Shown piece after piece: positions 9,768 to 56,379 of a stretch of DNA of 64,000 nucleotides; the stretch's first letter is position 1; every line of letters begins with the position of its first letter. The stretch is from Polyangiaceae bacterium (GTDB taxonomy: Bacteria > Myxococcota_A > Polyangia > Polyangiales > Polyangiaceae), in assembly GCA_033763455.1 (NCBI GenBank), contig JANRKO010000033.1, forward strand, positions 128,001-192,000, given 5' to 3'. Below the pieces are notes generated by a model that was given only the letters and a program-made list of their open reading frames with translations, ran no database searches and had not been told where the DNA came from. The position numbers and the translations under genes are program-made.

Positions 9768-9875
9768 TGATCTTGCCAAGGTAACACGCGTAAACGTACG
9801 CGCTCAGATGCCGCTCACCCAAACGAGCTATTTGCACCCAACGGCCCACGAATTGCCGGGAAATGAAGGCTATTT

Positions 9876-11033: not shown

Positions 11034-11093
11034 GCGCACCACGCGAAAGCCCTACGCGTCACCCAGCACGCTTGAGCGCACCACGCGAAAGCC
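11016..11093. repeat. 36-bp direct repeat (1 mismatch, 42-bp period) at a convergent gene junction
   Basis: gtcacccggcacgcttgagcgcaccacgcgaaagcc (11016-11051) vs gtcacccagcacgcttgagcgcaccacgcgaaagcc (11058-11093). Confidence 0.92.
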
Positions 11094-21272: not shown

Positions 21273-21821
21273 TCAGCCACCCATGAAGTCGCGCTGAGTC
21301 GCCAAGCTCACCAGCGGGATCCCGGCCGCACGGATGTTCTCCGCCCCGCCTTCTAACCTGTCCACCAGCGCAACAATGCCGACCACTTCGACGCCGGCGG
21401 CACGCAATGTCTCCACAGCTTTCAGACTGGAGCCGCCAGTTGTGACCACGTCTTCAAGCAGCGCAACGCGAAGACCTGGACGCACGGATTTGTCGCCCTC
21501 CACTAGCTTGGCTGTGCCGTGATCTTTTTGTTGTTTGCGGACATAAAGCGCATTGAGCGGCCGCCCCTTTTGAAAGCTCACCAAAGCCACGGCACTTGCC
21601 AGGGGGCAACCCCCAAGCTCGACGCCAGCCACGGCGTCGCACGCTGGAAGCTCAGATAGCAAATCCAGCATGAGCTCACCCACGAGCGCATGCCCTTCAG
21701 CGGTCAAGATCGTCTGCTTGCAGTCGATGAAGAAGTCACTTTCGCGCCCGGATGCCAGCTTCACACGTCGGCGTTCAAAACTGAGGTCACGCAACAACTG
21801 AATCAAACGATCTCGCTTCAC
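21273..21821 (-). CDS. pyrE: orotate phosphoribosyltransferase
   Basis: LASGRESDFFID, VRKQQKDHG, LEDVVTTGGS, VDRLEG. Confidence 0.95.
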   Translation of the reverse strand: MKRDRLIQLLRDLSFERRRVKLASGRESDFFIDCKQTILTAEGHALVGELMLDLLSELPACDAVAGVELGGCPLASAVALVSFQKGRPLNALYVRKQQKDHGTAKLVEGDKSVRPGLRVALLEDVVTTGGSSLKAVETLRAAGVEVVGIVALVDRLEGGAENIRAAGIPLVSLATQRDFMGG

Positions 21822-22462
21822 TACTTCTTTCCTTTTTTCTTGGCCTTTACGCCTTTTCCTAGAGTCGGGAGTTGGGGTGGCGGTGGGCGGCGTCGCGACG
21901 GCTCTGGGCGTGGGGTTATTGGACCTTCGTCGTCTTCGCTGTCGTCCTCTGGGCGAAACGCAGCGGGCGCGATGGGCGTTGGACGTCGAGGTGTTACCAC
22001 CTCCTGATCGGCAACATCACCGCTCTGCAGAAGTGAACGCGAGCGAACTTCTATGGGCGCAACGGCAGACGCCACGTTAGATTCCGGACTTATGCCCCGT
22101 GCGCGTGTTCCACGCCGAACGGCCAACGAGCTCTCTCCGGCTGTCCGCACTTCTCCTTTGACCCAAGCCCCAACAGCGACGCTTACGCTGGGCGCCATGA
22201 GATCTCCCACGACACGGCCCTCCGATTCGATGGCAACAAGCTCGGTGCCCTTCAGATTGCCTTCGACAGAACCCGCCACCACCACACGGCTCCCGCTCAC
22301 GGTGCCGAGCACAGAACCCGCCTGTGCAACGGTGACCTCGCCCTCGGAGCTGATGTTGCCTTCAATGCGTCCCAAGATCTCGAGGGCGTGGGAAGATTGA
22401 ACGTCCCCACGGATTACCGTATCGGCGCCAATGACTGTCAATGAGGCTACTACCACCGTCAA
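21821..22462 (-). CDS. bactofilin with long Pro/acidic/basic C-terminal tail (BacP-like)
   Basis: TVIGADTVIRGDV...G.IEGNI...V.GDL.AP beta-helix repeats; disordered tail ending KAKKKGKK; start approximate. Confidence 0.85.
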   Translation of the reverse strand: MTVVVASLTVIGADTVIRGDVQSSHALEILGRIEGNISSEGEVTVAQAGSVLGTVSGSRVVVAGSVEGNLKGTELVAIESEGRVVGDLMAPSVSVAVGAWVKGEVRTAGESSLAVRRGTRARGISPESNVASAVAPIEVRSRSLLQSGDVADQEVVTPRRPTPIAPAAFRPEDDSEDDEGPITPRPEPSRRRPPPPQLPTLGKGVKAKKKGKK

Positions 22463-22773
22463 ACCCCCATATCCACGGCACCCTTGAAGGTGGCGCCGTC
22501 AGCAATGGTGAGACGCGCCGCTTTGACGTCTCCAATAAGCTTTCCGCCCGCCTGAAGATCCACCCGCTCAGTTGCTTGAACATCTCCCGTTAGCTGGCCC
22601 GCAATATTGAACTGGGTACCCACTACATCGGCCTCCACAAGGCCGGTAGCTGCAATCGAGACCACATCTGAGGCCTTGAGCTTGCCGCGAATAGTACCGT
22701 GCACCAAGAGCTCTTCCTCGGTGACCATTTCCCCCTCGATTATCAAGCCGTCGCCTAGAACTGTACCTGCCAT
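22459..22773 (-). CDS. bactofilin (polymer-forming cytoskeletal protein)
   Basis: TVLGDGLIIEGE...GDVQA.ERVDL..GG...GDVKAARL.IADGA.FKG.VDM. Confidence 0.92.
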   Translation of the reverse strand: MAGTVLGDGLIIEGEMVTEEELLVHGTIRGKLKASDVVSIAATGLVEADVVGTQFNIAGQLTGDVQATERVDLQAGGKLIGDVKAARLTIADGATFKGAVDMGV

Positions 22774-22781
22774 GCTGGAAC

Positions 22782-23144
22782 CTAACGCGCGCCGGGGGCG
22801 CCCTTCCCTGCTGTTTCACGAGCGGTGTCGAGCTTGACGGCGACACGCGCGCCGGCCTCGATGCTGATTTCGGAGCCCTTGAGTTCGCCACGCACGGTGG
22901 CCCCGGCGCGCACCAAGATCGCGCCCTCGGTCAGAGCATCGCCCAAAAGCGTACCTTCTACTTCGAGTGATTCGGCGCGAACGTTACCTTCTACGCTAGC
23001 GCCTTTCGCCACGAAAACCGGGCCCGTAACGGCAACGTCGCCGCGCAGGCTTCCCTCAATGCTGAGGCCTCCGCGTCCACTAACGCGGCCTGTCACCCGC
23101 GTGGCACGTCCCAAAACGCTGATGCTAGAGCCGTGACGAGCCAT
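22782..23144 (-). CDS. bactofilin (polymer-forming cytoskeletal protein)
   Basis: SVLGR.TRV.G...G.L.IEG.L.GDV...VEGNVRA...ISIEAGA; start at ATG 23144. Confidence 0.88.
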   Translation of the reverse strand: MARHGSSISVLGRATRVTGRVSGRGGLSIEGSLRGDVAVTGPVFVAKGASVEGNVRAESLEVEGTLLGDALTEGAILVRAGATVRGELKGSEISIEAGARVAVKLDTARETAGKGAPGAR

Positions 23145-23255
23145 AAGTGTTGGCCACGCTAATACACCCACCCCTCCGTGTCAGCACATCGTGAGGCTTC
23201 GAGGAGATGTGCAGTATTTCGGGGCCCACAAAGAGCTCAACAGCACGAAAACTCC

Positions 23256-32383: not shown

Positions 32384-33127
32384 ATGGGTCGAAATGATTG
32401 GCAGAAAGCCGCAAACGAGGAAAATTTCGTAGCCGTAAGTGGTGCTCCAAAAAAAGGCGGTGTTCTTCCCGTGCTCGGAAGCCTCTTGGCGCTCGGTGCA
32501 CTCGGAGCACTCGTAAGCTACTACCTACCGCTCTATCGGGCTCACGAAACGCTGAACGGCGAATATGTGAAGCTTGCGATCCACAGCCGCGAACAGCAAG
32601 AAAAGCTGAGCCAAGCCGGCACGGCATTAAGCCGTGTGGCGGCCGAACGCGACGCCTTGAAAGCCGAACGCGGAGGCAATCAGCAGGATGCGGAAACACG
32701 CAAAGCCGCACTCCAAGCCCTTCAGAAAAGCTTAGAGGCAGCACTTGCTACGTCGACGGCCAAAAAGCTTATCGCGCTGAACGCTACGGAAACCGGAATC
32801 GAAATTCAGTTCCAAAGCCCCAGCCTCTTCAAGAACGACGCCAGTGCGCCCACGCCCGCGGGCAAGGCGCTCCTCTGCAGCATCGCAAAGGCCGCGGGCA
32901 AGGCCGTGCGTTTTGAAGTGGCAGGCTCCGCCGCCGCAAGCGAGGTTAAGAAGCCCGCCCTCAAGGCCTTCCCTTCTGCTTGGCACTTGGGTGTAGCGCG
33001 CGGCGCCAGCGCGGCTCAGGCGCTCGCTGAAACCTGCAAGCTTGCCGAAACTCAGTTGGTGGCTTCCGGCAAACCGGCAGGAGATGCCGCAAGTTCTGCT
33101 ATCCTCGCTCTCCGTCTCAGTCTGTAG
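32384..33127 (+). CDS. MotB/OmpA-like membrane-anchored coiled-coil protein (degenerate)
   Basis: gaggtg SD before ATG 32384; TM helix, coiled coil, LF...SA..T..GK..L and FPSAWHLGVARGASAAQAL resembling MotB SNWELSxARA. Confidence 0.7.
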   Translation: MGRNDWQKAANEENFVAVSGAPKKGGVLPVLGSLLALGALGALVSYYLPLYRAHETLNGEYVKLAIHSREQQEKLSQAGTALSRVAAERDALKAERGGNQQDAETRKAALQALQKSLEAALATSTAKKLIALNATETGIEIQFQSPSLFKNDASAPTPAGKALLCSIAKAAGKAVRFEVAGSAAASEVKKPALKAFPSAWHLGVARGASAAQALAETCKLAETQLVASGKPAGDAASSAILALRLSL

Positions 33128-33782
33128 TGGCAACCGGCTGAACAGCGCCGCGCCCGCGGGTGGCCGCTTGGGCACTTGTTCCCCACAGAGCCACCCTGCG
33201 CGTATCGTCCTTTAGGCGGGCCTTCTTTACACCCGAAATGCGGGGCTTCTCGGCGAGCTCACGCAGTTCCTTTTCCTCAGGCCAGTGAAACCCAGCCCCG
33301 CGCACACGCACCGTAAGAGGCGCCACAAGCGCCAAAGGCCGCTCGGTGAGCTCACTTTCTCGCAGTACGAGGCAGCTCTCCGAAACGCCAAAATGCTCGG
33401 CCAAGGGAGCACTCTTTTCGCCCACTACACTCTGCGCTCGAAAAAAACTTGTGCGGGGGATCAAAAGGCTCGCTGCGATACCTAAAGCGGCCTCGCTGGC
33501 TTCCTCAGGCTTGAGCGACGCTCGAGTAAGCCACCACTTCGCCAGCTCATAGGCTAGGGCCCAACGGCGCCGCACCGGAGGCAAGCTCGCACGCACGTAG
33601 ATGCGCGGAGCGCCGTTTACAGTGATGAGCCCACACTCGCGGTTGAGTGCTGGGGAGGTTACCAACACTGGCTTATGGCCGAGCAACTTGCACACGAGTG
33701 CCTCAGGCTGGACACGCTGGGCCCACTGTTGGCAGTGCTTCAGGAGAGCTTCGGAGATGCGTTCTTGTTCATTGAGCTTCAT
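33117..33782 (-). CDS. ImmA/IrrE (Peptidase_M78/DUF955)-like protein, predicted catalytically inactive
   Basis: IYV......RRRWALAYELAKWWL...AASLLIPR...LAEHFGVSE..L.LR matches IrrE architecture, but HExxH reads YELAK; start at ATG 33782. Confidence 0.75.
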   Translation of the reverse strand: MKLNEQERISEALLKHCQQWAQRVQPEALVCKLLGHKPVLVTSPALNRECGLITVNGAPRIYVRASLPPVRRRWALAYELAKWWLTRASLKPEEASEAALGIAASLLIPRTSFFRAQSVVGEKSAPLAEHFGVSESCLVLRESELTERPLALVAPLTVRVRGAGFHWPEEKELRELAEKPRISGVKKARLKDDTRRVALWGTSAQAATRGRGAVQPVATTD

Positions 33783-34063
33783 GCGCCGAAGAATTGCGCG
33801 ATCGCGCTGCCCCCGTCCATGTGATGTAGGACAAACAATGTCCCGCCGGCAGCTAAGGCCAGCCGCAACTAAGCGCTGCGTACGGAGGCTCTGTGCCGGT
33901 GTCGATCTAACGCGTGCGCTAAGCGCCAAGGGATTCGTGCCGGTGCTGTGGTTGGCTGTAAAGTGCGGCAAATAAACAAAACGCTCTGGCCGCAGCGCCA
34001 GGAGGTGCCCCGAAAAGCGGGAAATGGACACGGCTTGCCGGAAGGAATGATACAAGCCCTCGC

Positions 34064-35191
34064 GTGGAGAATAACGATGCCGAGCCAGGATTTGAGAGTC
34101 TTTCCGAGCTGGAGCTCACGCCCGAGATATTAAAAGGCTTTGAACAAGATCGCATCACTTCGCCCACCACCGTGCAACGGCTAGGGATCCCAGCAATTTT
34201 AGCTGGAAAAAACGTGGTATTGGCCTCCGGCACCGGCACCGGCAAGACGTTAGCTTACGCTCTCCCCATTCTCCAAAAGCTCCGCCATTCAACCGAAGGC
34301 CGCGCCCTCTGCATCACGCCCGCCACCGAGCTCGCCGTTCAGATCCAAAGGACGCTGGAGCGCTACAAAGATCCTGCTCTCAAGCTTGGAGCCTTGGTGG
34401 CTAGCGGGAACGTTAGAAAACAGCGCACTGACATTCAGAAAAGCACGCGCTTTATTGTGGGCACTACCGGCCGCGTGTTGGAGATGTACGCGGAAAGAAA
34501 GCTCAAGGGCGTGAACACGATTATCCTCGACGAGCCGGAGCCCGTGTTAGCCAGCAAAGGGGGCGAATTCTTGATGGAGGTGCTTTCGCGGCCTGAGCCG
34601 AAGCTGCAAATCATCCTCGCTGGCGCCACCATGGGCAGGCACGCCGAAGCCGTTATCGCTAAAGTGATGGGCAAAGACGTAGTGCGTCCGGAAATCGCTG
34701 AAAGCCCGCTGCACACCTTGATTCAACACTACTTCGTACCCGTGCGTGATCCTGCGCAGAAGGACCTCGCGATCGCGCGGTTCCTTCAGAACAATCGCTG
34801 CCGGCAGGTGATCTTATTCGTGAACCAACCCCATCTGATCCGGCATATTTTTCGCTTCCTCAAAGACTCCGGGGAATATCCCGTTACGGTGAGCCACGAT
34901 CGCTCGAAGGCCGACTGCAAGCAAGCCCTCATCGATTTTGCACAAGGCAACGTGAATGTGCTCATCACCACGGATCAAGCCGCCACGGGCCTCGACATTC
35001 CGGACATTGAATGGGTGCTGCACTACGAGCTACCAACATCGGCTCCAGGCTACCTGCATCGCGCCGGGCGCACTGGGCGTGCTGGCCGTTCTGGGTCTTC
35101 GGTGGTGTTTACCGTTGAAAGTGAGCGCGCGCTGATGCAGCGTTTCGGCCGTGAGTTGAAGCTGGAATTTCAGGCCTTCCCTCGGCACTAG
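34064..35191 (+). CDS. DEAD/DEAH-box RNA helicase-like protein with atypical motifs
   Basis: Q motif (PTTVQ), GTGTGKTLAY, LDEPE in place of DEAD, GAT, GLDIP, YLHRAGRTGRAG. Confidence 0.9.
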   Translation: MENNDAEPGFESLSELELTPEILKGFEQDRITSPTTVQRLGIPAILAGKNVVLASGTGTGKTLAYALPILQKLRHSTEGRALCITPATELAVQIQRTLERYKDPALKLGALVASGNVRKQRTDIQKSTRFIVGTTGRVLEMYAERKLKGVNTIILDEPEPVLASKGGEFLMEVLSRPEPKLQIILAGATMGRHAEAVIAKVMGKDVVRPEIAESPLHTLIQHYFVPVRDPAQKDLAIARFLQNNRCRQVILFVNQPHLIRHIFRFLKDSGEYPVTVSHDRSKADCKQALIDFAQGNVNVLITTDQAATGLDIPDIEWVLHYELPTSAPGYLHRAGRTGRAGRSGSSVVFTVESERALMQRFGRELKLEFQAFPRH

Positions 35192-36189: not shown

Positions 36190-36873
36190 TTATTGGGTGT
36201 CTGCACCACCCGCACCACCCGCTGAGCCGCCCGGCAGACCGTTGATCCAATCTGCCACGCATTTGAGCTCCTCGCTGGTAAACGGAACCAACGGGGCGTC
36301 CTTCTTTTCAGGCTCCGGCATTTGCTGCCCGCACTCGGCGGGCGGAGTGCCCGCGAGCTTGATGTAGAGCAAGCTCGTTTCCGCGTCCCCTGGGACGACA
36401 ACGGTTCGAGTGGGGCAATTCAAGGTTGCCGTCTTCATTCCCATCTTGCCCACCCACCCTTCGAGCGAAGCCACGATATGAAAGCCATTGGGACCGAAGT
36501 GGCAATCATCGCAACGCCTCGCGTTGAATAACGCCGCCAGCGTTGCCGTATCGCAATTGGACAGATCGAGAACGGTACCCGCTCCACCGGTTACACCGGC
36601 GCCGCCCGTGCTCGTGCCACCACTCGCATTGCCTCCGCCCGTACCGCCCGCTGACGTGCCTCCCGACGACGCGCCCCCGCTCTTGGTGCCACCGCTGCCC
36701 CCAGAGCCCACTACAAGCATCCCGCCCGTTCCTGCTCCAGGCTTTCCTCCAGACGCTGCCCCTCCTGATCCAGAAGGTGTAACCACTGGGCTCCTACCGC
36801 CCGATTCATCGGAACAAGCTGCTGAGAGAGCCACCAAACCTACGAGCGCACAGATGGGAATGTTCAGGTTCAT
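36190..36873 (-). CDS. lipoprotein with Gly-rich linker and c-type heme (CxxCH) domain
   Basis: Lipobox SAA-C, Gly/Ser/Thr linker, RCDDCH, VVPGD.ETSLLY.KL, QQMP, WING (planctomycete cytochrome c-like pattern); start at ATG 36873. Confidence 0.75.
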   Translation of the reverse strand: MNLNIPICALVGLVALSAACSDESGGRSPVVTPSGSGGAASGGKPGAGTGGMLVVGSGGSGGTKSGGASSGGTSAGGTGGGNASGGTSTGGAGVTGGAGTVLDLSNCDTATLAALFNARRCDDCHFGPNGFHIVASLEGWVGKMGMKTATLNCPTRTVVVPGDAETSLLYIKLAGTPPAECGQQMPEPEKKDAPLVPFTSEELKCVADWINGLPGGSAGGAGGADTQ

Positions 36874-37133
36874 CGCGACGCGAAGCATGCCTGATCGTCC
36901 TCCGCCTTGCCACCAGATTTGCGACTGCATCGCACCTTGGGCGAAGACGCTGAACACTTCTCGAGTTTCCAGGAAAAACTGTCGCAAGCAGGCGGATTGC
37001 TTGGAATGGGCAGCTCGCACACCACCCGGATCCTTCAAGCTGGTGATTTTTCCGACATATTCCCACCCAAGTTTCGAATTGTCCTCCACTCCGTCAGCGC
37101 TAGATAGCCGGGAGGAACGGGAAGAAGTCGGCC

Positions 37134-38327
37134 ATGAACGTGCATCCACAAGCTACCTCGAAGCTAAACCGCGCCGTCGACTTGGCGCAGCTCCAAGCGC
37201 AAATTCGTACGCTGATAACGCTTGAGGAGACGGAAACGCCTGTAATCAGCTGCTACGTGCGCCGTGTGGTTCGCCCCGATGGTGGCGAAATTCCCGAATT
37301 TGCGCACCGCTTACAAGCGATTCGGAACGTGTTGCGCGGCAAGGAGCTCGAGCAATTCGAAGAAAGGTTCGCTCGGGTCCAGAGCTACCTCAGCTCAGAT
37401 CTGCTGCCAAAAACACAGGGAATTGCCATATTCGCGCGCGGCGGGCGGAGCCCGTTCTTTATGGCGCTGGAGTTTGAGGTGCCTCTTCCGAACCGGCTCT
37501 CGGTGAATTCAACCCCCGACGTTTACCACCTGGTGGAGCTGAAAGACACATATCACCGCTTCGTGGTCCTTATTTCCACAGAGCATAGCGCTCGCATCTT
37601 GGAGGTGAACCTAGGAACCATTTCGCGTCAGCTCTGGGCGGAACGGCCCGAGCTCCGAAGCCGCGTAGGGAAAGAATGGACGCACGATCACTACCAAAAT
37701 CATCGACGGGATCGTGGCGAGGAATTCATGCAAGAGAAGATTGCGCTGGTTGAAAGGTTGATGGCGGCGGAAGGCCACACTCACCTGATTTTGGCGGGTG
37801 TGCCACACCTTGCCCAGCGCGTACGCGAGCGGCTCCCTAAGCACATTCAGGACAAAATAATGGATGTTGTCCCTACGCCAGAGTACGCGGGCGTTGTGGA
37901 TGTGGTTGCGAGCACGTTGTCAGCTTTCATTCAAGGGATTCAGGCTCAGTCGCACAGTGCGGCGTGGAAACTCGAAGATGCACTCCGAACGGGAGGGTTA
38001 GCCGTATGCGGCACCGAAGCCACGTATGAGGCCCTCCGCCAAGGTCAAGTGGACGTGCTGGTGATGGCGCGCGAGTACGACGGCAGCATCGCCTGGCATT
38101 GCCCGAAGTGCGGGTGGGCGCAGACCGTGCATGTGCGTCCCCCCATATGCCCAGATTGCGAACACCAAGAGCTCCGCACGGTGAATCTGAAGGAAGAGAT
38201 GATCCGCACAGCGGAGCGGCAAGGGGTGAAGCTCGAATTGGTACAGCAAAGCGAAACGCTGCTGCGGCTTGGGGGCATTGGATGTCTGCTCCGCTGGGAA
38301 AGGAAACCAAACTGGTCTGATTCGTGA
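37134..38327 (+). CDS. aeRF1/pelota-like bacterial release-factor homologue (baeRF/Balon-like) with zinc ribbon
   Basis: PVISCY, GIAIFA, VVLISTEHSARI, HYQNHR, LILAG, LAVCGTEATYEALRQGQVDVLVM (L7Ae-like domain), CPKC/CPDC, LGGIGCLLR; ggagga SD upstream. Confidence 0.85.
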   Translation: MNVHPQATSKLNRAVDLAQLQAQIRTLITLEETETPVISCYVRRVVRPDGGEIPEFAHRLQAIRNVLRGKELEQFEERFARVQSYLSSDLLPKTQGIAIFARGGRSPFFMALEFEVPLPNRLSVNSTPDVYHLVELKDTYHRFVVLISTEHSARILEVNLGTISRQLWAERPELRSRVGKEWTHDHYQNHRRDRGEEFMQEKIALVERLMAAEGHTHLILAGVPHLAQRVRERLPKHIQDKIMDVVPTPEYAGVVDVVASTLSAFIQGIQAQSHSAAWKLEDALRTGGLAVCGTEATYEALRQGQVDVLVMAREYDGSIAWHCPKCGWAQTVHVRPPICPDCEHQELRTVNLKEEMIRTAERQGVKLELVQQSETLLRLGGIGCLLRWERKPNWSDS

Positions 38328-39121
38328 ACATGCCCAAGTCCACTTTGCGCGGCCGCCTGCAATCGCTGGTCGAACACCCACGTTTCGATCAGATCGTGGT
38401 AGCAATCATCGTGGCTAACGCCATCATTTTGGGGCTAGAAACCTCCGCTGACCTCACCGCGCGTTTCGGGGGCTTGCTCCGAATACTAGACCACACGGCG
38501 CTCCTCTTCTTCGTGCTTGAGCTAATGCTTAGAATGTTCGTTTATCGCGGTCGATTCTTGCGAGATCCGTGGCGAGTGTTCGATCTATTGGTGGTCGGCA
38601 TTGCACTTTTCCCTGCAAGCGAAGTGTTTAGCGTCCTCCGAACGCTGAGAGTACTGCGCGTCTTGCGCTTGGTGTCTATAGTGCCATCTATGCGCCGTGT
38701 TGTGAGTGCGTTGCTCACGGCGCTACCAGGCATGGCGTCCATCATGGGGCTCATGTCGCTCTTGCTTTACGTTTCTGCAGTTGCGGCTACCAAGCTTTTT
38801 GGAGCCATCGCGCCTGAGTATTTTGGTGGATTTGGCGCCTCGCTCTTCACTCTTTTTCAGATAATGACGGTCGAAGGCTGGCCCGATATAGCGCGCACCG
38901 TAATGGAGAAGTCACCCTACGCATGGGTGTTCTTCGTGACATATCTTCTCATTGGGACGTTCATGGTGCTCAATCTCTTCATTGCTGTTGTGGTGAATGC
39001 CATGCAGGCAAAAGTGGCCGAAGATCTCAAGGACGAGGGGGACGCACACACCCAGCAAATCCTGAGCGAGTTGCGCAGCGTGCGTCAGGAGCTTGAGGCA
39101 CTGCGGAAGCACCAAAGCTAA
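38324..39121 (+). CDS. 6-TM voltage-gated cation channel (BacNav/NaChBac-like ion transporter)
   Basis: NAIILGLET, DPWRVFD, S4 LRTLRVLRVLRLVS, pore LFQIMTVEGW, S6 LNLFIAVVVNAM, C-terminal coiled coil; GTG 38324 or ATG 38330. Confidence 0.93.
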   Translation: MNMPKSTLRGRLQSLVEHPRFDQIVVAIIVANAIILGLETSADLTARFGGLLRILDHTALLFFVLELMLRMFVYRGRFLRDPWRVFDLLVVGIALFPASEVFSVLRTLRVLRVLRLVSIVPSMRRVVSALLTALPGMASIMGLMSLLLYVSAVAATKLFGAIAPEYFGGFGASLFTLFQIMTVEGWPDIARTVMEKSPYAWVFFVTYLLIGTFMVLNLFIAVVVNAMQAKVAEDLKDEGDAHTQQILSELRSVRQELEALRKHQS

Positions 39122-39189: not shown

Positions 39190-39702
39190 GTGGCAAACGA
39201 ACGTTCCAGTGAACTTTTTGCACCCACGGAGCCGCCCGTACCCCGGTGGGTTGAGCAATGGGTTAAGCTTTCGGAAACTGCCTGGGTTCTACCGGGGACG
39301 AACCTTCGCTTCGGGCTTGATTCGGTGCTGGGCTTCTTGCTGCCGGGCCTGGGAGACTGGATTTCATCAATGGCTGCGCTGGGAATGATCGGTGAAGCCG
39401 CGCGGCGGCAGGTCCCCGTGTCTGTGCTTGTTCGTATGCTAGTCAACGTGATGCTCGACACGGCGTTGGGCAGCATTCCTCTGCTCGGCGATGTTTATGA
39501 CTTTTTCTTTCGTTCCAACACAAAGAACCTAGAGCTCTTCCGCCGGCACTCGGGGCCCATTCTGCCAACTGGGGAAGCCACCCGTCGGCTTGTCTTGGCC
39601 CTGGGCCTCATCGTGGCCACAGCGGCCGTCCTTTTCTGGGTGAGCGTCATGGGCCTGGTATCGCTGGCACTTTGGGCATTCTTGCGCGAAAAGCTGAGCT
39701 GA
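39190..39702 (+). CDS. DUF4112 family membrane protein
   Basis: PGT..RFGLDS.LG..LPG.GD, RML.NV..D...GSIPL.GD.YDFFF.SN..N. Confidence 0.88.
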   Translation: MANERSSELFAPTEPPVPRWVEQWVKLSETAWVLPGTNLRFGLDSVLGFLLPGLGDWISSMAALGMIGEAARRQVPVSVLVRMLVNVMLDTALGSIPLLGDVYDFFFRSNTKNLELFRRHSGPILPTGEATRRLVLALGLIVATAAVLFWVSVMGLVSLALWAFLREKLS

Positions 39703-39706
39703 TCAT

Positions 39707-39725
39707 CTGTAGGTATTACCTACAG
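39707..39725. promoter_or_regulatory. perfect 19-bp palindrome (operator or terminator stem)
   Basis: ctgtaggta-t-tacctacag, 4 nt after the DUF4112 stop, followed by tttaattcttttttg. Confidence 0.55.
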
Positions 39726-39793
39726 TTTAATTCTTTTTTGTCCTCTTGTTCTACGTTCTCCAGGCCTCATGCTTAGAGTCAGAAGGGCCAGCC

Positions 39794-40930
39794 ATGCGTA
39801 ACTCTCTGCGAATCGGTTCAATGTTTGGAATTCCTGTATTGGTGCACGTTAGCTTCTCGCTGATCGTGCTCCTCGGGGCCGTCCAAGGCGGCGTCGCTCA
39901 CGGGTCAAGAGGCATCTTGTTCGGTGTGGCGAGCATGCTGATTATCTTTGCTTCCGTAGTGCTCCACGAGCTAGGGCATGCACTCATGGCTCGGCGCTTT
40001 GGCATTCAAACGGTCGACGTAACGCTCTATCCACTCGGCGGTATTGCCAGGATGAGCGGGGAGGCGAAGAGCCCATGGCAGGACGTAGCTATTTCAGTCG
40101 CCGGACCAGCGGTGAACCTGCTGCTCTTCATTGGCATCGCAGCTATTGGTCTTCAGATGGGCTTCATCTCAGCTGATATTCCGAAGTCTCTAGGTGCTAC
40201 GCCTCAGGGCTTGTTGCTGGTGGGCCTTACCGCCAATCTCATGTTGTTCCTGTTCAATTTGCTTCCCTTCTTTCCGCTTGATGGCGGCCGGATCTTGCGT
40301 TCTTTGCTGACGCTCAAAGTTGGGGCATCACGCGCCACACTCTGGGCGGCGCGCACTGGCCAAGCCGGCGCCGTTGCAATTGGACTTTTCGGAATACTCT
40401 CAGGCAACCTGCTAACGGCTCTGGTGGCGGGCTTCCTGTTTATCTCCGCATCTCAAGCGCTCGCTCAATCTCAGTTTGAAAGTGCCACGGCACACGTTAC
40501 TGTCGGTGAGGCCTATGAGCGTGGGAGTATTATCCTAGAGCCCGCCATGCAGTTGCATGCCGCGTTTGAGACACTGAGGCATTCGTCCCAGGTAGCCTTC
40601 CCGGTGGCTCTTGAAGGGCAGCTTCTTGGCGCGATTCACCGAGACGAGCTACTTGCCAAGCAATTGGCAAATGAGAGCCACGGGTACGTGTCGAGCATCA
40701 TGCATCGCAGCCTCCCTGAGTTCGCTTCAAACGCCCCACTCGGCGGCTTTCTGGAGCTCGCCAAAGAGAACCCGCGCGTAATTGCAGCGGTCAGAGAAGA
40801 AGGGGCACTCTTAGGGTTCCTGACGCTAGAGCATGTGCTCAAGAGCCGAATTTCGACGCCCCCAGCACCAGAGCCTGGGGGGAAGACTCCTGCGGGCACG
40901 CGTGGCGTGCTTGGTGAAGATCGCAGCTAA
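39794..40930 (+). CDS. site-2 protease (M50) with C-terminal CBS domains
   Basis: LHELGH, LYPLGGIA, AGPAVN, FNLLPFFPLDGGR; CBS-like FPV...LLG pair; start at ATG 39794. Confidence 0.92.
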   Translation: MRNSLRIGSMFGIPVLVHVSFSLIVLLGAVQGGVAHGSRGILFGVASMLIIFASVVLHELGHALMARRFGIQTVDVTLYPLGGIARMSGEAKSPWQDVAISVAGPAVNLLLFIGIAAIGLQMGFISADIPKSLGATPQGLLLVGLTANLMLFLFNLLPFFPLDGGRILRSLLTLKVGASRATLWAARTGQAGAVAIGLFGILSGNLLTALVAGFLFISASQALAQSQFESATAHVTVGEAYERGSIILEPAMQLHAAFETLRHSSQVAFPVALEGQLLGAIHRDELLAKQLANESHGYVSSIMHRSLPEFASNAPLGGFLELAKENPRVIAAVREEGALLGFLTLEHVLKSRISTPPAPEPGGKTPAGTRGVLGEDRS

Positions 40931-40948: not shown

Positions 40949-42151
40949 ATGTTAGACCTTCAACTACTCGCTCAAACCGCGGCCGTGGCGCCCGACCCCA
41001 AGCTGATTGCTCACGGCTTGTTTCTCTTGATGGTGGTGGCATTTCTTGCCCTTGACCTCGGCGTATTCCATCGCGATGCGCACGAGGTTTCAATGAAGGA
41101 GGCGCTCACCTGGTCTGTTATTTGGGTAACGTTGGGTCTTGCGTTTTCGCTAGTCGTCTATGCTGCCTATGAGGGTCAGTGGTTCAGCTTAGGCGCCAAC
41201 ACTGCGCTCTATAACCCCGCTGCCAACACGGACCCTGCGGCTCCGCTACTTATCACCGGCACCGTCAGTGGGTTTGAGGCCGCCAAGCAGTACCTCACGG
41301 GCTACGTGGTGGAAAAGTCCCTCGCGATGGACAACATCTTCGTAATCGCGATCCTCTTCGGGTATTTCGCCGTGCCGGCAAAGTACCAACACCGAGTGCT
41401 ATTCTGGGGTATTCTCGGGGCGCTCGTAATGCGCGGTGCGATGATCGCCGTCGGCGGTAGCTTGATTCTTCAGTACCAGTGGGTGCTCATTATCTTCGGC
41501 CTCTTCCTCTTGCTTACCGCAGTCAAGATGGTGTTCGCGGGTGAGGAGAAAGATCCCACCAACAATCCCGTTGTGCGGCTAATGAAGCGTATTTTTCCGG
41601 TCACCGAGTTTTACGACGGCCAACGTTTCATTACCAAGCGCACCCTCGCGCCCACTTACAGCCGCGATCCGAACACTGGCAAAGAAGTTCAAGACCCGCC
41701 TCCAGCTGGCACACTCAGAGCCCGCTGGGCCATCACGCCGCTGCTTTTGGTGCTTGTCTTGGTGGAGATCACCGACCTCGTCTTCGCGGTCGACAGCATT
41801 CCCGCCATCTTCGCGATAACTCCAGACCCGTTTATCGTCTTTACGAGCAACGTTTTCGCTATATTGGGCCTGCGTTCGCTCTATTTTTGCCTGGCGGCCT
41901 TGATTTCAAAGTTCCGCTTCTTGAAGCCTGCGCTCATCCTCATCTTGGCCTTCGTTGGCGTAAAGCTCCTGTTGCTTAGCGTCCCCCCATACCTCGACGA
42001 CATGGGTGCGATATTTGGAGTCGCCCTCGAAGCCGGTAGCGCCATCAAAGTGAGCACCACGCTGTCGCTCTCTGTTGTCCTAGGGTTGCTTGCGAGTGCC
42101 GTTATCGCTTCTATCCTTGCCCCATCACCCAAAGAGGCAAAGAGCAGCTAG
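40949..42151 (+). CDS. TerC/Alx family membrane protein
   Basis: YLTGYVVEKSLAMDNIFV, YQHRVLFWGILGALVMR, TDLVFAVDSIPA, FIVFTSNVFAILGLRSLYF. Confidence 0.95.
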   Translation: MLDLQLLAQTAAVAPDPKLIAHGLFLLMVVAFLALDLGVFHRDAHEVSMKEALTWSVIWVTLGLAFSLVVYAAYEGQWFSLGANTALYNPAANTDPAAPLLITGTVSGFEAAKQYLTGYVVEKSLAMDNIFVIAILFGYFAVPAKYQHRVLFWGILGALVMRGAMIAVGGSLILQYQWVLIIFGLFLLLTAVKMVFAGEEKDPTNNPVVRLMKRIFPVTEFYDGQRFITKRTLAPTYSRDPNTGKEVQDPPPAGTLRARWAITPLLLVLVLVEITDLVFAVDSIPAIFAITPDPFIVFTSNVFAILGLRSLYFCLAALISKFRFLKPALILILAFVGVKLLLLSVPPYLDDMGAIFGVALEAGSAIKVSTTLSLSVVLGLLASAVIASILAPSPKEAKSS

Positions 42152-42170: not shown

Positions 42171-42197
42171 CGGCTAGCCGGGTTCCCCGGTTAGCCG
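42171..42197. terminator. 12-bp stem-loop at the convergent terC/bfd junction
   Basis: cggctagccggg-ttc-cccggttagccg (one G-U pair); no clear U-tract. Confidence 0.5.
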
Positions 42198-42397
42198 GCT
42201 TCGCGGAAGTGGCACGGCTCACTTTTCCGAACTTGTTCCAATTCTTCGTCCAGAATTTCGGCGATGGTGCCCTCGCAGCCACCGCACCCGCCGCCCGCGC
42301 CACAGGTTCGTGTGACGCCCGCAGAAGTCCGTGCTCCCAACGATATGGCTCGTCGCACCTCACGATCATTCACGCCCAAGCAATGACAGACAATCAC
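42191..42397 (-). CDS. bfd: bacterioferritin-associated [2Fe-2S] ferredoxin
   Basis: MIVCHC.GV....V...I..GA.......CGAG.GCGGC; adjacent to bfr. Confidence 0.92.
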   Translation of the reverse strand: MIVCHCLGVNDREVRRAISLGARTSAGVTRTCGAGGGCGGCEGTIAEILDEELEQVRKSEPCHFREAG

Positions 42398-42705: not shown

Positions 42706-43176
42706 ATGCAAGGTAACGCCAAAGTCATCGAAACCCTGAACGAAGTTCTAACTTCCGAGTTAACGGCAATAAACCAATACTTCATTCACTTCAAGCTCTG
42801 TAAAAATTGGGGATATCCGCGCATCGCGCACAAGAAGCGAGAAGAATCCATCGAGGAGATGAAACACGCCGACGAAATCATCGAACGCATCCTATTTCTC
42901 GGTGGCATCCCCAACATGCAACGCATGAATCCCGTGCGCGTGGGTGAACGCCCAGATGAGCAACACCGGCTCGATCTTGCGCTTGAGGTGGAAGCGGTGG
43001 AGCGCCTCAATCGTGGCATCGAAGAAGCACGCTTGGCGGCGGACAACGGCACCCGAGCTCTCTTGGAAAAAATCCTCAGTAATGAAGAGGAATCTATTGA
43101 TTGGCTCGAAACACAGCTGCACTTGATCGGCGAGCTGGGCCTTGAACGCTACCTAGCGGAGCAAACGCACTCTTGA
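42706..43176 (+). CDS. bfr: bacterioferritin
   Basis: LT.ELTAINQYF.H, ESIEEMKHAD (heme Met), RILFL.G.PN, WLETQL.LI..LG..RYL. Confidence 0.96.
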   Translation: MQGNAKVIETLNEVLTSELTAINQYFIHFKLCKNWGYPRIAHKKREESIEEMKHADEIIERILFLGGIPNMQRMNPVRVGERPDEQHRLDLALEVEAVERLNRGIEEARLAADNGTRALLEKILSNEEESIDWLETQLHLIGELGLERYLAEQTHS

Positions 43177-43210: not shown

Positions 43211-44515
43211 ATGAAGCTTCGGCGCAACGTCGTGGTGATTGGTGGGGGGTTCGGTGGCCTCGCATTGACGCGTGAGCTCGCCAAAATGCCCGTCCACGTA
43301 ACGCTTGTGGATCGGTCGAATCACCACCTCTTTCAGCCTCTGCTCTATCAGGTCGCAATGGCAGGCCTTTCTCCTGGGGAGATTGCAGTGCCCATTCGCT
43401 CGGTGCTGAGCAAGCAGGAGAACGCTCGTGTTCTTTTGGCCGAAGTCACCCACGTGGATCTGGAAGCGCGCCAGGTTCACACTCAACAAACCAAGCCGCT
43501 GCCGTACGACTATTTGGTAATAGCTACTGGGGCTCGCAATAGCTATTTTGGGAACGATACGTGGGCGCAGGCGGCACCCGGCCTGAAAGATCTGGATGAT
43601 GCCATAGAGATCAGGCGGCGTGTTCTCTTGGCTTTTGAGGCGGCCGAACTCGAAGCTGACCCCACGTTGCAGCAACGATACCTCACGTTTGTGGTGATCG
43701 GCGGTGGGCCCACAGGGGTGGAATTGGCGGGCGCAATAGCCGAGCTTGCTACGTTTGTTTTGGCCCGTGATTTTCGCTCCATTCATTCGGACAGAACTCG
43801 CGTGGTGCTTGTTGAAGGCGGCGAGCGCATATTGGGCAGCTTCGCCCCGGAGCTTTCGGTTCGCGCGCGGCAAAGTCTGGTCGACATGGGAGTGGAGGTG
43901 CGCTCAGGGCTGAGAGTCACAGCTATCGACGCGGGGGGTGTTTCATGTGGGGATGAGCGCATAGAAACTGCCACTGTGCTTTGGGCCGCAGGCGTTGCAG
44001 CCTCCCCCTTGTGTAAAAGCCTGGGGTTCGAAGTGGATCGCCAAGGAAGGGCCAAGGTTGAGCCTGATTGTTCGCTCCCTCAACTGTCCGAAGTCTTCGT
44101 GATTGGAGATGCCGCTTGCTTCATTCCGAAAGGCACCGCCATACCCCTACCCGGCGTAAGCCCCGTAGCTATGCAACAGGGCCGCTTCGTTGCACGGCAG
44201 ATCGCCCGCAGCTTAGAGGGAAAACCTCGCGAACAGTTCGAGTACCTGGATAAAGGCTCCATGGCCACCATCGGCCGTCGCCGCGCCGTCGCTCAACTCG
44301 GCAAGCTCAGGCTCTCAGGGTTTGTGGCCTGGCTTGCGTGGCTCTTCGTACACATCTTCTACCTCATCGACTTTCGCAATCGTCTCGTCGTGCTTTTGGA
44401 TTGGACATTCGCCTATTTTTCGTACCGACGCGGCTCGCGGCTGATAACTGGACGCCGATTGCAGGCCGGCGCACCTGAGGTCACCCACCCTAAGCCGGCC
44501 CCGTCGCACCTTTAG
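43211..44515 (+). CDS. ndh: type II NADH:quinone oxidoreductase
   Basis: VVVIGGGFGG, HLFQPLLYQVA, IGGGPTGVELAG, WAAGV, IGDAA, A.QQG, DKGSMATIGR. Confidence 0.93.
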   Translation: MKLRRNVVVIGGGFGGLALTRELAKMPVHVTLVDRSNHHLFQPLLYQVAMAGLSPGEIAVPIRSVLSKQENARVLLAEVTHVDLEARQVHTQQTKPLPYDYLVIATGARNSYFGNDTWAQAAPGLKDLDDAIEIRRRVLLAFEAAELEADPTLQQRYLTFVVIGGGPTGVELAGAIAELATFVLARDFRSIHSDRTRVVLVEGGERILGSFAPELSVRARQSLVDMGVEVRSGLRVTAIDAGGVSCGDERIETATVLWAAGVAASPLCKSLGFEVDRQGRAKVEPDCSLPQLSEVFVIGDAACFIPKGTAIPLPGVSPVAMQQGRFVARQIARSLEGKPREQFEYLDKGSMATIGRRRAVAQLGKLRLSGFVAWLAWLFVHIFYLIDFRNRLVVLLDWTFAYFSYRRGSRLITGRRLQAGAPEVTHPKPAPSHL

Positions 44516-54244: not shown

Positions 54245-55744
54245 CTAGGCCCGGATTTCGGAAATTGCGCCCCTGCTAATCATCGGATCACCGAAGTTCG
54301 CATCGGGCAGGCCATACGCGTTCAAGATCGTGGTCAAAAGATCGTTGATGTAGCGCATGTTCGTTGGATCGAACTCTGGAATCGGATCAGTAGTTAGCGA
54401 ATTGCTATCGATGATCCTAATATGCCGGCCAGTCTTGAAGTACTTGTTGAGATTGCCAAGCAATACGAGCGGAATGTTGATGCTCGCGTGGCTGTTGCCC
54501 TGACCCATATTGGTGGTCCAAAGCAGGAGCGTGTTGTCGTAGACGGCATGCTGCTTGAGCTTCTCTTGCAGCTTGAATACCTGCCCGGCGTTCCACGCGC
54601 CAACGTTAATGAAATTCTGAACATCCTCCCACCAGCTCATGGAGCCAGGATCATTTGGGTCCATCTCGTAAGGCACCTGCCCAGGAGTGAGCCAAATGTG
54701 CGAGAGATCGTGCCAACGTGCTCGTTGCCCTGGGATCCAGGTGAACACTAGGTTGTTCCCTTCTTCGTTCATTTGAAACGTGATTATGCGTGTGAGGTCG
54801 CAGGCAAAAGCCATTGCGCCCAGGTCCATCATTACGTCGGCAATTTGGGGCTGCAAGGCTAAGTATTGCTCGTTGATCTCGCCGTTAGTTGGAAAAAGAT
54901 CCGCCGGGTAAGCCGGGGTCATGCACGAAACCGTGGGTTGGGAAACAATATCGATGCGTTGTTCTACACTGCGAAAAGCCTCAAGGTACTGGTCGAGCTT
55001 CTGCCGATCCAAGGTGCTGAGCGATGGTCTCAACGTTTCTGCGTGTTGAATCGCCGCGTCCAAAACTGACTTCTGACGCGCGCGCAGCATGTCGGCCGAA
55101 AAGGTGGGTGCCGTCGCTGCGGGCGCCACTACTTGGGAGCTCGGAAAAAGCTTGTTGAAAACGTTGCGCGGGTTCTCCATTGCGGGAACAGACTGGCCTT
55201 TGTCAATCCACGACACGGCACTCTTGGTTCCCGCTGCCGTAACGATCACGCCAAGCTGGAGGTTCGGAAATCGCATGGTCTTGTCGTGGCCAAGTTGTTT
55301 CGCGAGGTAGTGATCGAGCGAAATGCCTCCGCCGGTAACTTCGGTGTCGCTGATCTCGAGCGGCTCGTACCCATTCAAAATGCTGCAGTAACCGTCGTGG
55401 TTAGAGCCAGCGTTCTGCAACCCCTCCAGAATGAGCATTTCACTCCGCACCGACTCGAGTGGCTTGAGGGTCTCGGTGAATTCGAAGTTAGGGTTGTCGA
55501 GGGGGCCAACACCAGATCGCGGATACAGGTCGATCGTACCCGACCGCTTGTCGTATTGGGACTTACCAGGTTCCGGTGGCCAGAAGGCATCCCCAAACAT
55601 CGAGAAAGGCTGGTGATAGGTGATAAAGCGCGGTGGCGACACTGCCTGAGCACTCGCCACTCGCATACCCTCGAGCAATGGCAGGGCTATCATGCAGCCT
55701 GCACCGCCTTGAAGTAAGGTTCGTCTCGATATTTTTCGACGCAT
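54245..55744 (-). CDS. DUF1552 (HXXSHH) family Tat-exported protein
   Basis: ISRRTLLQG...LPLLE, SLDHYLA, NPR.VF.KLF, KSVLD, DRQKLDQY...R.VEQRI, AFACDLTR, WHDLSH. Confidence 0.9.
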   Translation of the reverse strand: MRRKISRRTLLQGGAGCMIALPLLEGMRVASAQAVSPPRFITYHQPFSMFGDAFWPPEPGKSQYDKRSGTIDLYPRSGVGPLDNPNFEFTETLKPLESVRSEMLILEGLQNAGSNHDGYCSILNGYEPLEISDTEVTGGGISLDHYLAKQLGHDKTMRFPNLQLGVIVTAAGTKSAVSWIDKGQSVPAMENPRNVFNKLFPSSQVVAPAATAPTFSADMLRARQKSVLDAAIQHAETLRPSLSTLDRQKLDQYLEAFRSVEQRIDIVSQPTVSCMTPAYPADLFPTNGEINEQYLALQPQIADVMMDLGAMAFACDLTRIITFQMNEEGNNLVFTWIPGQRARWHDLSHIWLTPGQVPYEMDPNDPGSMSWWEDVQNFINVGAWNAGQVFKLQEKLKQHAVYDNTLLLWTTNMGQGNSHASINIPLVLLGNLNKYFKTGRHIRIIDSNSLTTDPIPEFDPTNMRYINDLLTTILNAYGLPDANFGDPMISRGAISEIRA

Positions 55745-56379
55745 GACAACTCCTGAACCTGCGATTCGGCGCTTGCACGAAGCGCCGCTAGAGAACAAGG
55801 ATGCCGGAAACTGGCCTCTTTGCTAGTCCCAAGTGTGCAACTTGTGTCAGCCTTCAGCCTGAACGCAACATGCGTGCGGCGCTGCAATTCAAGCAGTCGC
55901 GGGCTGCCATGCCCCCAGGTGCGGCACAACTTTGTACCAGTGCACTGCGTTGAGATTCGAACGCTCATGCTCTCGCGCGGCCCACAAGGTCGGCGCTGCG
56001 TCAACGCTGACCATGGGAGACACCCAATGCCGCATTCAATCACCGTCGCAACGCCGTGGGCCAAGCGCTCGTCTCCAAGAACCGAATCGCCCGGATCCCC
56101 ATAGGTTTCAAGCGCTGCTTCGCGGGTTCGGGCAGCAGCACGGATGTTTGCTTCAACGACAGGAAGGATCTCCACGTCGCCCACTGTTGATCAAGCTTTC
56201 CACCGGCACGCGAAGCCTGCCACGCGCCACTTGGGTCGGAGGCTCTTGCCGGTTTCACCGTTGTCCTGGTGATATGGCCACGCGAAAACGCCATTGCCAC
56301 GCGGTGTATGTTAGCATCTAGGTCGCGAGCTCGCGGCTCTTGCTCCAGCCCGAGAGATCTCGTGATAAGAGGCAACGCA

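Follow-up and report, generated by a model that had tools for sequence, protein, structure and literature searches.

Bacteria have release factors of their own, RF1 and RF2, and Balon-type factors, which share a superfamily with the archaeal and eukaryotic release factors aRF1/eRF1, were recognised only in 2024. Together with HPF, Balon-type proteins park ribosomes (PMC6514570, PMC10901736), and Balon genes lie in stress operons, often adjoining RaiA/HPF (PMC10901736). A linkage to HPF has also been published for the baeRF families (PMC6514570). Here we describe a gene of baeRF-1 family 10, hereafter baeRF10, which overlaps the gene of a voltage-gated cation channel in a stretch of 64,000 nucleotides from a Polyangiaceae bacterium (GCA_033763455.1, contig JANRKO010000033.1, positions 128,001-192,000, forward strand; referred to as the window). 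The explanation that we favour, with a probability of roughly 0.6, is that baeRF10 acts at the ribosomal A site in times of stress and belongs to a variable neighbourhood of cation/alkaline-stress and ribosome-hibernation genes with which it is co-regulated, and that it is not half of a dedicated channel device.

In the window, baeRF10 is the first of five genes on the + strand, in the order baeRF10, channel, DUF4112, M50/CBS and TerC/Alx, with gaps of -4, 68, 43 and 18 nucleotides. The two leading open reading frames (ORFs) were confirmed as initially annotated, at 37134..38327 (+, 397 amino acids, ATG start) and 38324..39121 (+, 265 amino acids, GTG start). The features of the cluster are as follows.

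37134..38327, + strand: baeRF-1 family 10 gene, 397 amino acids, predicted three-domain protein of the aeRF1/Balon-like kind (ORF, PF18854, Foldseek, PDB profile search)
37515..37919, + strand: central domain (RNase-H-fold, 'catalytic loop'), residues 128-262 (span of the PF18854 match)
37662..37715, + strand: loop RVGKEWTHDHYQNHRRDR, residues 177-194, at the place of the release-factor GGQ (alignment of 79 central domains)
38100..38159, + strand: four-Cys zinc ribbon CPKC...CPDC (C323/C326/C339/C342), an insert in the C-terminal Pelota-like domain (alignment, n=37)
38324..38327, + strand: GTGA stop/start overlap of baeRF10 and the channel gene (sequence; TTGA in the relatives L001 and L002)
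38324..39121, + strand: single-domain voltage-gated cation channel with six transmembrane segments, 265 amino acids, BacNav fold, CavMr-like filter (Ion_trans, 2.4e-42)
38639..38668, + strand: S4 voltage-sensor arginines R106, R109, R112 and R115 (RTLRVLRVLR; motif, invariant in 8 aligned channels)
38867..38887, + strand: selectivity filter TVEGWPD, residues 182-188 (motif)
39190..39702, + strand: DUF4112 membrane protein, 170 amino acids (PF13430, 9.1e-27)
39707..39725, + strand: terminator-like hairpin with an 8-bp stem and a T-rich tail, in the gap between DUF4112 and M50 (terminator scan)
39746..40930, + strand: M50 (site-2-protease-type) membrane metalloprotease with a CBS domain, 394 amino acids (Peptidase_M50, 1.7e-22; CBS)
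40949..42151, + strand: TerC/Alx family membrane protein, 400 amino acids (PF03741, 1.2e-52; TIGR03718, 388 bits against a cut-off of 246.4)

A profile search assigned the product of 37134-38327 to baeRF family 10 (PF18854, E 3.5e-17, 63.4 bits against a cut-off of 27.1, residues 128-262), while eRF1_3 and baeRF_family2 were matched below threshold. The NCBIfam Balon-type models NF052287, NF052288 and NF052289 were matched only weakly, at 48.6 bits (cut-off 480), 33.9 bits (320) and 17.3 bits (330), and the aRF1 equivalog model TIGR03676, which marks class-I release factors, gave 33.9 bits against 234.7. Judged by its sequence, the product belongs to an already catalogued family (PF18854) and falls outside the named Balon families. 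The homologue search returned more than 1084 sequences at E <= 0.001 among 8000 candidates scored, the top 120 all being at least 45% identical, and therefore we regard the baeRF10 and channel ORFs as real, conserved genes. Family 10 homologues carry the wrong label 'host attachment protein' in some sources.

An AlphaFold2 model based on 37 homologues reached a pLDDT of 72.4 and a pTM of 0.42, with residues 159-194, which include the loop, below a pLDDT of 50. Compared with the PDB by Foldseek, the model matched best aRF1 (4af1, E 6e-20), ribosome-bound eRF1 and Balon/Msmeg1130 (8v9j, E 1.9e-17), all with a probability of 1.00 and over about 400-440 columns; Balon of P. urativorans and Pelota ranked lower. 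Because of these long matches, the predicted three-domain aeRF1 architecture of the initial annotation (an N domain, a central RNase-H-fold domain and a Pelota-like C domain) is upheld. The full-length sequence profile found aRF1 (4af1, 1.1e-12), Msmeg1130 (4.3e-9) and Rv2629 (4.3e-7). The zinc ribbon CPKC...CPDC is present; none of its cysteines (C323, C326, C339 and C342) varies among 37 sequences, and in the profile alignment the ribbon falls on the cysteine-containing insert of archaeal aRF1 (4af1 and 3ir9). Both GGQ and NIKS are absent from the 397-residue sequence, and residues 177-190 read RVGKEWTHDHYQNH.

The protein can be compared with several described groups. With baeRF-1 family 10 (Burroughs & Aravind 2019, PMC6514570) it shares the profile match, the architecture, the zinc ribbon and a loop glutamine. 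With Balon, Msmeg1130 and Rv2629 (PDB 8rd8, 8v9j, 8v9k) it has in common the superfamily, the overall fold, the lack of GGQ and NIKS and, judged from its relatives, the occurrence in stress neighbourhoods, but it differs by the retained four-Cys zinc ribbon and by a conserved HYQxHRR loop instead of Balon's lasso loop (PMC10901736). A counterpart of Balon's HP motif or of its bL27 trap could not be recognised in baeRF10 from the sequence alignment: no invariant His-Pro pair occurs among the conserved N-domain columns (n=37), and the insert of the C domain is a zinc ribbon and not a plain hairpin. The best structural and profile matches come from aRF1/eRF1 and Pelota/Dom34, with the zinc ribbon placed as in aRF1 and a central domain that is also Pelota-like. 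In contrast to aRF1/eRF1, baeRF10 has neither GGQ nor NIKS, stays far below the cut-off of TIGR03676 and occurs in a bacterial host.

We subsequently analysed the neighbourhood of baeRF10 homologues. Genome contigs were scanned with a profile of the baeRF10 alignment. Out of 226 relatives found, the 80 best loci entered the analysis with up to 6 kb per side, and 71 of these have at least 1.5 kb downstream. The loci are contigs of metagenome-assembled genomes, often short, with taxon labels as in the records. Neighbours were identified by tblastn with the window genes (E 1e-5) as well as by an all-against-all clustering of ORFs that was blind to them. With the first approach the channel was found in 7 loci, M50 in 6, TerC in 23 and DUF4112 in 1, and the three genes upstream of baeRF10 in none of the 80. 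The recurrent neighbours were the following.

33/80: LysR-type regulator, mostly divergent upstream (NhaR model NF008284 is the best match of 29/29 ORFs tested, of which 19/29 reach its 219-bit cut-off)
23/80: TerC (19/19 tested are TerC/Alx)
20/80: tandem Usp (named from one representative)
18/80: short HPF, within 6 kb (17 loci confirmed by Pfam)
14/80: sigma-54 response regulator (named from one representative)
11/80: P-type ATPase (best matches to PMR1/SERCA-type Ca2+ pumps, below cut-offs; four representatives)
10/80: histidine kinase (named from one representative)
8/80: M48 protease (7 confirmed)
7/80: TFIIB-type zinc-ribbon protein (7 confirmed)
7/80: Ion_trans channel (tblastn)
6/80: M50+CBS (6/6 confirmed)
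6/80: NhaA (6 confirmed)
5/80: Na_Ca_ex exchanger (5/6 cluster members confirmed; one member, when tested, exceeded the cut-off of a Ca/Na antiporter model)
5/80: CPA antiporter (5 confirmed)
5/80: carbonic anhydrase (5 confirmed)

At least one TerC or cation-transport gene was present in 46 of the 80 loci, and relatives of the window protein are linked to HPF, as published for baeRF families (PMC6514570). NhaR is the activator of nhaA at high salt and high pH in E. coli (PMC6307784), and Alx is a Mn2+ exporter of the TerC family that is active at alkaline pH (PMC10197570). The company of family 10 (NhaR-type regulators, TerC/Alx, HPF, Usp and transporters for Na+ and Ca2+) leads to the hypothesis that the protein acts in salt, alkaline or divalent-cation stress. 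We propose that baeRF10 would be the bacterial descendant of an archaeal release factor, binding to the ribosomal A site without hydrolysing peptidyl-tRNA, and that under stress it would either silence and protect ribosomes as Balon does or free stalled ones like Pelota. Cation or alkaline stress would induce proteins of ion homeostasis together with the factors that park ribosomes, the two groups being joined by co-regulation. Family membership, the predicted fold, the conservation of motifs, the order of genes and the counts of neighbours are shown by the data; that the protein binds ribosomes and is not catalytic, that the channel selects Ca2+, that the genes share a transcript, and which stress induces them, is inferred. 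In the broader neighbourhood, which is seen across many phyla, family 10 genes stand next to a divergent NhaR-type regulator, a short HPF and tandem Usp, together with cation-handling genes that differ from locus to locus: TerC/Alx, NhaA, CPA antiporters, Ca2+/Na+ exchangers, P2-type ATPases, carbonic anhydrase and at times a channel. The cluster of the window would then be a reduced, lineage-specific version with five genes, in which the channel came to sit directly behind baeRF10 and is presumably coupled to it via the NTGA overlap.

Some clusters and cluster members were discarded as artefacts. Those named 'unk165', 'unk98' and 'c26' proved to be antisense ORFs of the LysR gene, several others were ORFs that run antisense to baeRF10 and TerC or use another frame of these genes, and the 'CaCA' member of locus L033 as well as a few HPF and M48 members failed in Pfam. 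Some further features of individual loci were recorded. The carbonic anhydrases near baeRF10 (L008, L029, L033, L047 and L066) are of the beta class, a bicarbonate/pH theme, and in L033 (8660-11059) TerC is followed by a PEP carboxylase gene. A CNNM/CorC-type (PaeA-like) CBS membrane protein is encoded just upstream of baeRF10 in L012 (330-1709) and L016 (4634-5986); the one from L016 reached 374.5 bits against a cut-off of 500. The small TFIIB-type zinc-ribbon protein (PF13453) lies between baeRF10/HPF and TerC in its seven loci (e.g., L075, 7552-7863) and is absent from the window.

Evidence on catalysis comes from the central domain and its loop. Y187, Q188 and H190 were invariant in a first alignment of 37 close sequences. 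Among 79 central domains from the fetched loci (2 truncated rows excluded), the loop aligned without gaps, and residue 188 was Gln in 62, Arg in 13, His in 2, and Glu and Ala in one each. Position 187 was Y in 75 and F in 4, position 190 was H in 72/79, and the basic residues after the loop (HRR) are conserved. Burroughs & Aravind noted that the glutamine is well conserved in family 10 and regarded the family as a possible active peptidyl hydrolase (PMC6514570). baeRF10 could accordingly be an active release or rescue factor that hydrolyses peptidyl-tRNA on stalled ribosomes under stress, with Q188 of the HYQ motif as the catalytic residue; the glutamine is indeed present in the window protein and in most relatives, within a gap-free loop, and the C domain and zinc ribbon are closest to true aRF1. 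But this glutamine is not preceded by Gly-Gly, a conserved NIKS-like motif is lacking, and Arg, His, Glu or Ala takes the place of the glutamine in 17/79 sequences. Its replacement by Arg in a sixth of the relatives argues against a catalytic role. Furthermore, a profile of the central domain alone matched Balon Msmeg1130 (7.8e-4) and archaeal Pelota (6.8e-3) in the PDB and did not find the central domain of aRF1/eRF1. The aRF1 alignment of the full-length profile starts past the loop, so that both profiles leave the loop without an aligned partner in aRF1/eRF1, and equating Q188 with the glutamine of GGQ would have to rely on a modelled loop with a pLDDT below 50. We therefore consider an active release factor unlikely. 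Since GGQ is absent, Q188 is replaceable, the central profile matches only the non-catalytic Balon and Pelota, and HRR is conserved, we favour the reading that HY[QR]xHRR is a non-catalytic, putatively rRNA-binding loop in a role comparable to that of Balon's lasso loop.

Several points weigh against this stress-neighbourhood explanation. The retention of Q188 in 62/79 sequences, the published view of family 10 as possibly active (PMC6514570) and the low confidence of the modelled loop (pLDDT <50) all concern the lack of catalysis. As for the neighbourhood, 34 of the 80 loci carry neither TerC nor a transporter gene, many loci ending at a contig edge. Usp, the sigma-54 regulator and the kinase were named from one representative each and the P-type ATPase from four, the enrichment of neighbours is set against a background that we estimate at 0-3 gene copies per genome, and the counts overstate independent events because the loci are related to one another. 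No shared operator emerged from 16 intergenic regions with a divergent NhaR gene, where the top dyad occurred in 3/16 and the maxima of shuffled sequences were 2-3. NhaR, HPF and Usp genes were not found anywhere in the 64-kb window, and therefore the regulon argument is borrowed from relatives. Finally, the cluster may be read as two transcripts owing to the hairpin behind DUF4112. With 12 terminator-like sites in the region against 7.4 +/- 2.8 in shuffled sequences, the scan taken together did not exceed the shuffles, so that this hairpin is weak evidence when taken alone.

No sigma-70-like site was found on the + strand upstream of 37134; the one match of the region lies on the - strand, with 2.3 expected. 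Searched against Rfam with its gathering thresholds, the window had no match at all, so that no yybP-ykoY element precedes TerC. The order baeRF10-channel-(DUF4112)-M50-TerC is common to the window and its two nearest relatives, L001 and L002. DUF4112 stands beside the channel in the window and in L002 but in no other locus.

The channels NaChBac and NavAb have the filter motif TLESW, with Ser at position 4. CavMr is a native Ca2+-selective channel with the filter TLEGWVD, and Gly4 determines its Ca2+ selectivity (Shimomura et al. 2020, PMC7041947). The window channel had been described as an intact NaChBac-like channel. Its integrity holds: it is a BacNav-type channel with a single Ion_trans domain (E 2.4e-42), six transmembrane segments, four S4 arginines that are invariant among 8 aligned channels and a C-terminal helical tail, features that it shares with CavMr and ancestor-like BacNavs. 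NavAb chains were matched in the PDB at ~1e-64, and human Cav3.2/3.3 came out on top when their four domains were summed. The likeness to NaChBac had to be given up, as the filter TVEGWPD has Gly instead of Ser at position 4 and is of the CavMr (Ca2+) kind: the two filters have T1, E3, G4, W5 and D7 in common, which includes Gly4 and an acidic position 7, and differ at positions 2 and 6. From this filter motif the channel is better called CavMr-like, and it is probably Ca2+-permeable.

The GTGA overlap at 38324-38327 and an alternative ATG at 38330 were both confirmed (junction DNA ttcGTGAacATG). The TGA of baeRF10 shares bases with the GTG of the channel gene, an overlap of 4 nucleotides. In L001 and L002 the junction reads TTGA, so that the stop/start overlap is kept in three genomes, whereas the codon matching ATG 38330 is GAG in both. 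Because the overlap is kept and this ATG is not, the overlapping NTG is the likelier start of the channel. Translational coupling of the channel to baeRF10 is plausible in the lineage of the window.

Direct contact between the two genes is confined to this lineage. The channel lies directly downstream of baeRF10 in 2/80 loci, L001 (Polyangiaceae) and L002 (Polyangiales), whose baeRF10 proteins are 79% identical to that of the window. Counting every channel on the same strand up to 3 kb past baeRF10, the number is 7/80, and none was seen in the remaining 73, although a channel that has diverged beyond the reach of tblastn (E 1e-5) or of the clustering would escape this count. In the other five loci the channel starts 1369-2788 nucleotides after baeRF10, with one to four genes between them: the order is baeRF10-HPF-TerC-channel in L004, baeRF10-TerC-channel in L006, baeRF10-M50-channel in L012 and L016, and baeRF10-Usp-ZnRibbon-HPF-TerC-channel-TerC in L027. 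In a FastTree phylogeny built from 79 baeRF10 proteins, without the truncated L064 and L065, the presence of the channel has to change state five times or more. One 9-row group unites L004 and L006 with the window clade, and the channels in it are 66-86% identical to that of the window. The pores are of three types, namely TVEGWPD/TAEGWPE, TLEGWVE (L027) and TFDNWSS (L012 and L016). Counting the window clade, L004 and L006 as one group, and with each association having its own pore type, we arrive at three or more independent associations. In L027, which carries an Acidobacteriota label, the channel is placed between two TerC/Alx genes that both score above the model cut-off (8937-12506), and its filter is one residue from that of CavMr.

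With an estimated 0-3 copies of such neighbour genes per genome, one of them would be expected in a stretch of 12 kb well under 1% of the time, and the recurrence of the channel in 7/80 loci is above our chance expectation. A mere accident of adjacency, that is, two neighbours in one myxobacterial lineage with nothing functional in common, would agree with the restriction of direct contact to that lineage and with the highly variable gene order around family 10 genes. It is highly improbable, since channels recur in genomes labelled Myxococcota, Acidobacteriota and Bacteroidota with differing pores and intervening genes, and since TerC and M50/CBS recur as well, all on the same strand and with short gaps.

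The same data bear on the two-gene module that the initial annotation had envisaged. We take it to mean that baeRF10 and the channel form a pair, physical or as sensor and effector, in which the state of the ribosome is coupled to membrane potential or the entry of Ca2+, with dormancy entry or abortive infection as examples. The overlap kept as GTGA/TTGA in three genomes speaks for such a pair, and the recurrence of channels in 7/80 loci, with three pore types and at least 5 changes on the tree, is hard to obtain by chance. But the genes abut only in the window and two of its kin (~79% identity), TerC, HPF, Usp or M50 genes intervene in the other five loci, and the channel was not found in 73/80 loci, other neighbours being 3-5 times commoner. 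Co-folding of baeRF10 with the C-terminal tail of the channel (residues 222-265) gave 0.00 twice, without controls, and is neutral on binding. The defence variant found no backing: at E <= 0.001, none of the five cluster genes (baeRF10, channel, DUF4112, M50 and TerC) matched a family of PADLOC-DB, and the surroundings are ordinary chromosomal genes. Matches of an upstream DEAD-box helicase to PADLOC models were rejected as generic helicase similarity. A dedicated module is therefore quite unlikely, and the striking overlap is better seen as a lineage-specific arrangement inside a broader, looser neighbourhood, which tempers the first reading of the pair.

A bolder version of the co-regulation explanation, which we regard as a long shot, holds that family 10 proteins are A-site factors specific for cation stress. 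Na+, alkaline or Ca2+ signals would directly gate ribosome parking, NhaR-type regulators being the sensors and a native voltage-gated Ca2+ channel the route of delivery in some lineages, and in Polyangiales one translationally coupled message would supply factor and channel in fixed proportion. If true, this would link Ca2+ or electrical signalling to translation arrest in bacteria and provide a first physiological role for prokaryotic Cav-like channels. The discoverers of CavMr suggested that voltage-regulated Ca2+ signalling may be important in prokaryotes (PMC7041947), and the CavMr-like channel described here has TerC and an M50/CBS protease as companions in a stress cluster. Irrespective of the bolder version, the neighbourhood names a set of genes worth testing jointly.

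The nearest described analogue is the mycobacterial DosR locus Rv2623-Rv2631, in which the Balon homologue Rv2629 is grouped with Usp and CBS-domain proteins. Rv2625c is presumably a protease of the M50 type, and we know of no channel or TerC at this locus. Its regulator is DosR, in contrast to the NhaR-type regulators of family 10 neighbourhoods. Hrp1 lies near the Balon-type Rv2629 (PMC10901736), and Rv2625c, Rv2629 and DosR are mentioned together in the portions of the literature searched. The NhaR/TerC/cation-transporter context of family 10 was not found in the searched text of PMC6514570, nor were TerC, NhaR, LysR or Usp in the text of its supplement; the readable text of the supplements of PMC10901736, one file of which was unreadable, did not contain Myxococc, Polyangi, TerC or NhaR. 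In the literature searched, we found no experimental test of any family 10 member and nothing that joins Balon with NhaR, TerC or voltage-gated channels. Since the links to HPF and stress operons are published and the NhaR/TerC/channel context does not appear in this literature, the locus is a variant of a known theme and not a new kind of system; what is new is the setting among NhaR, TerC and cation transporters and the repeated presence of a Cav-like channel.

Upstream of baeRF10, a Gly/Ser-rich ORF of 319 amino acids (36190-37149, - strand) overlaps the start of baeRF10 by 16 nucleotides as called. It had no match in Pfam, NCBIfam or PADLOC and does not occur beside baeRF10 in the 80 loci. 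Translation probably begins more internally, at a signal-peptide-like stretch; some ~250 nucleotides of divergent intergenic DNA would then remain. Further upstream, an IrrE/M78-like peptidase ORF (33117-34055, - strand) with a weak match to CapP (E 2.9e-6) stands back to back with the DEAD-box helicase gene (34064-35191, + strand); neither is conserved near baeRF10 homologues in the 80 loci.

Just past TerC, a small Cys-rich ORF (42191-42397, - strand) appears from its sequence to be of the Bfd-type [2Fe-2S]-like kind. It is followed by a ferritin-like (bacterioferritin) gene (42706-43176, + strand) and an NDH-2-type oxidoreductase gene (43211-44515, + strand), so that a putative iron-storage pair adjoins the metal/cation cluster. 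The rest of the window looks like ordinary myxobacterial chromosome with Ser/Thr kinases, an ECF sigma/FecR pair and three tandem bactofilin genes (21821-23171, - strand) that adjoin genes with phosphoribosyltransferase domains. It also encodes a DUF1552 (HXXSHH) protein (54245-55798, - strand) and a multi-domain PSD/PSCyt (DUF1585-1595) protein (60481-62232, - strand), a pair first described in planctomycetes.

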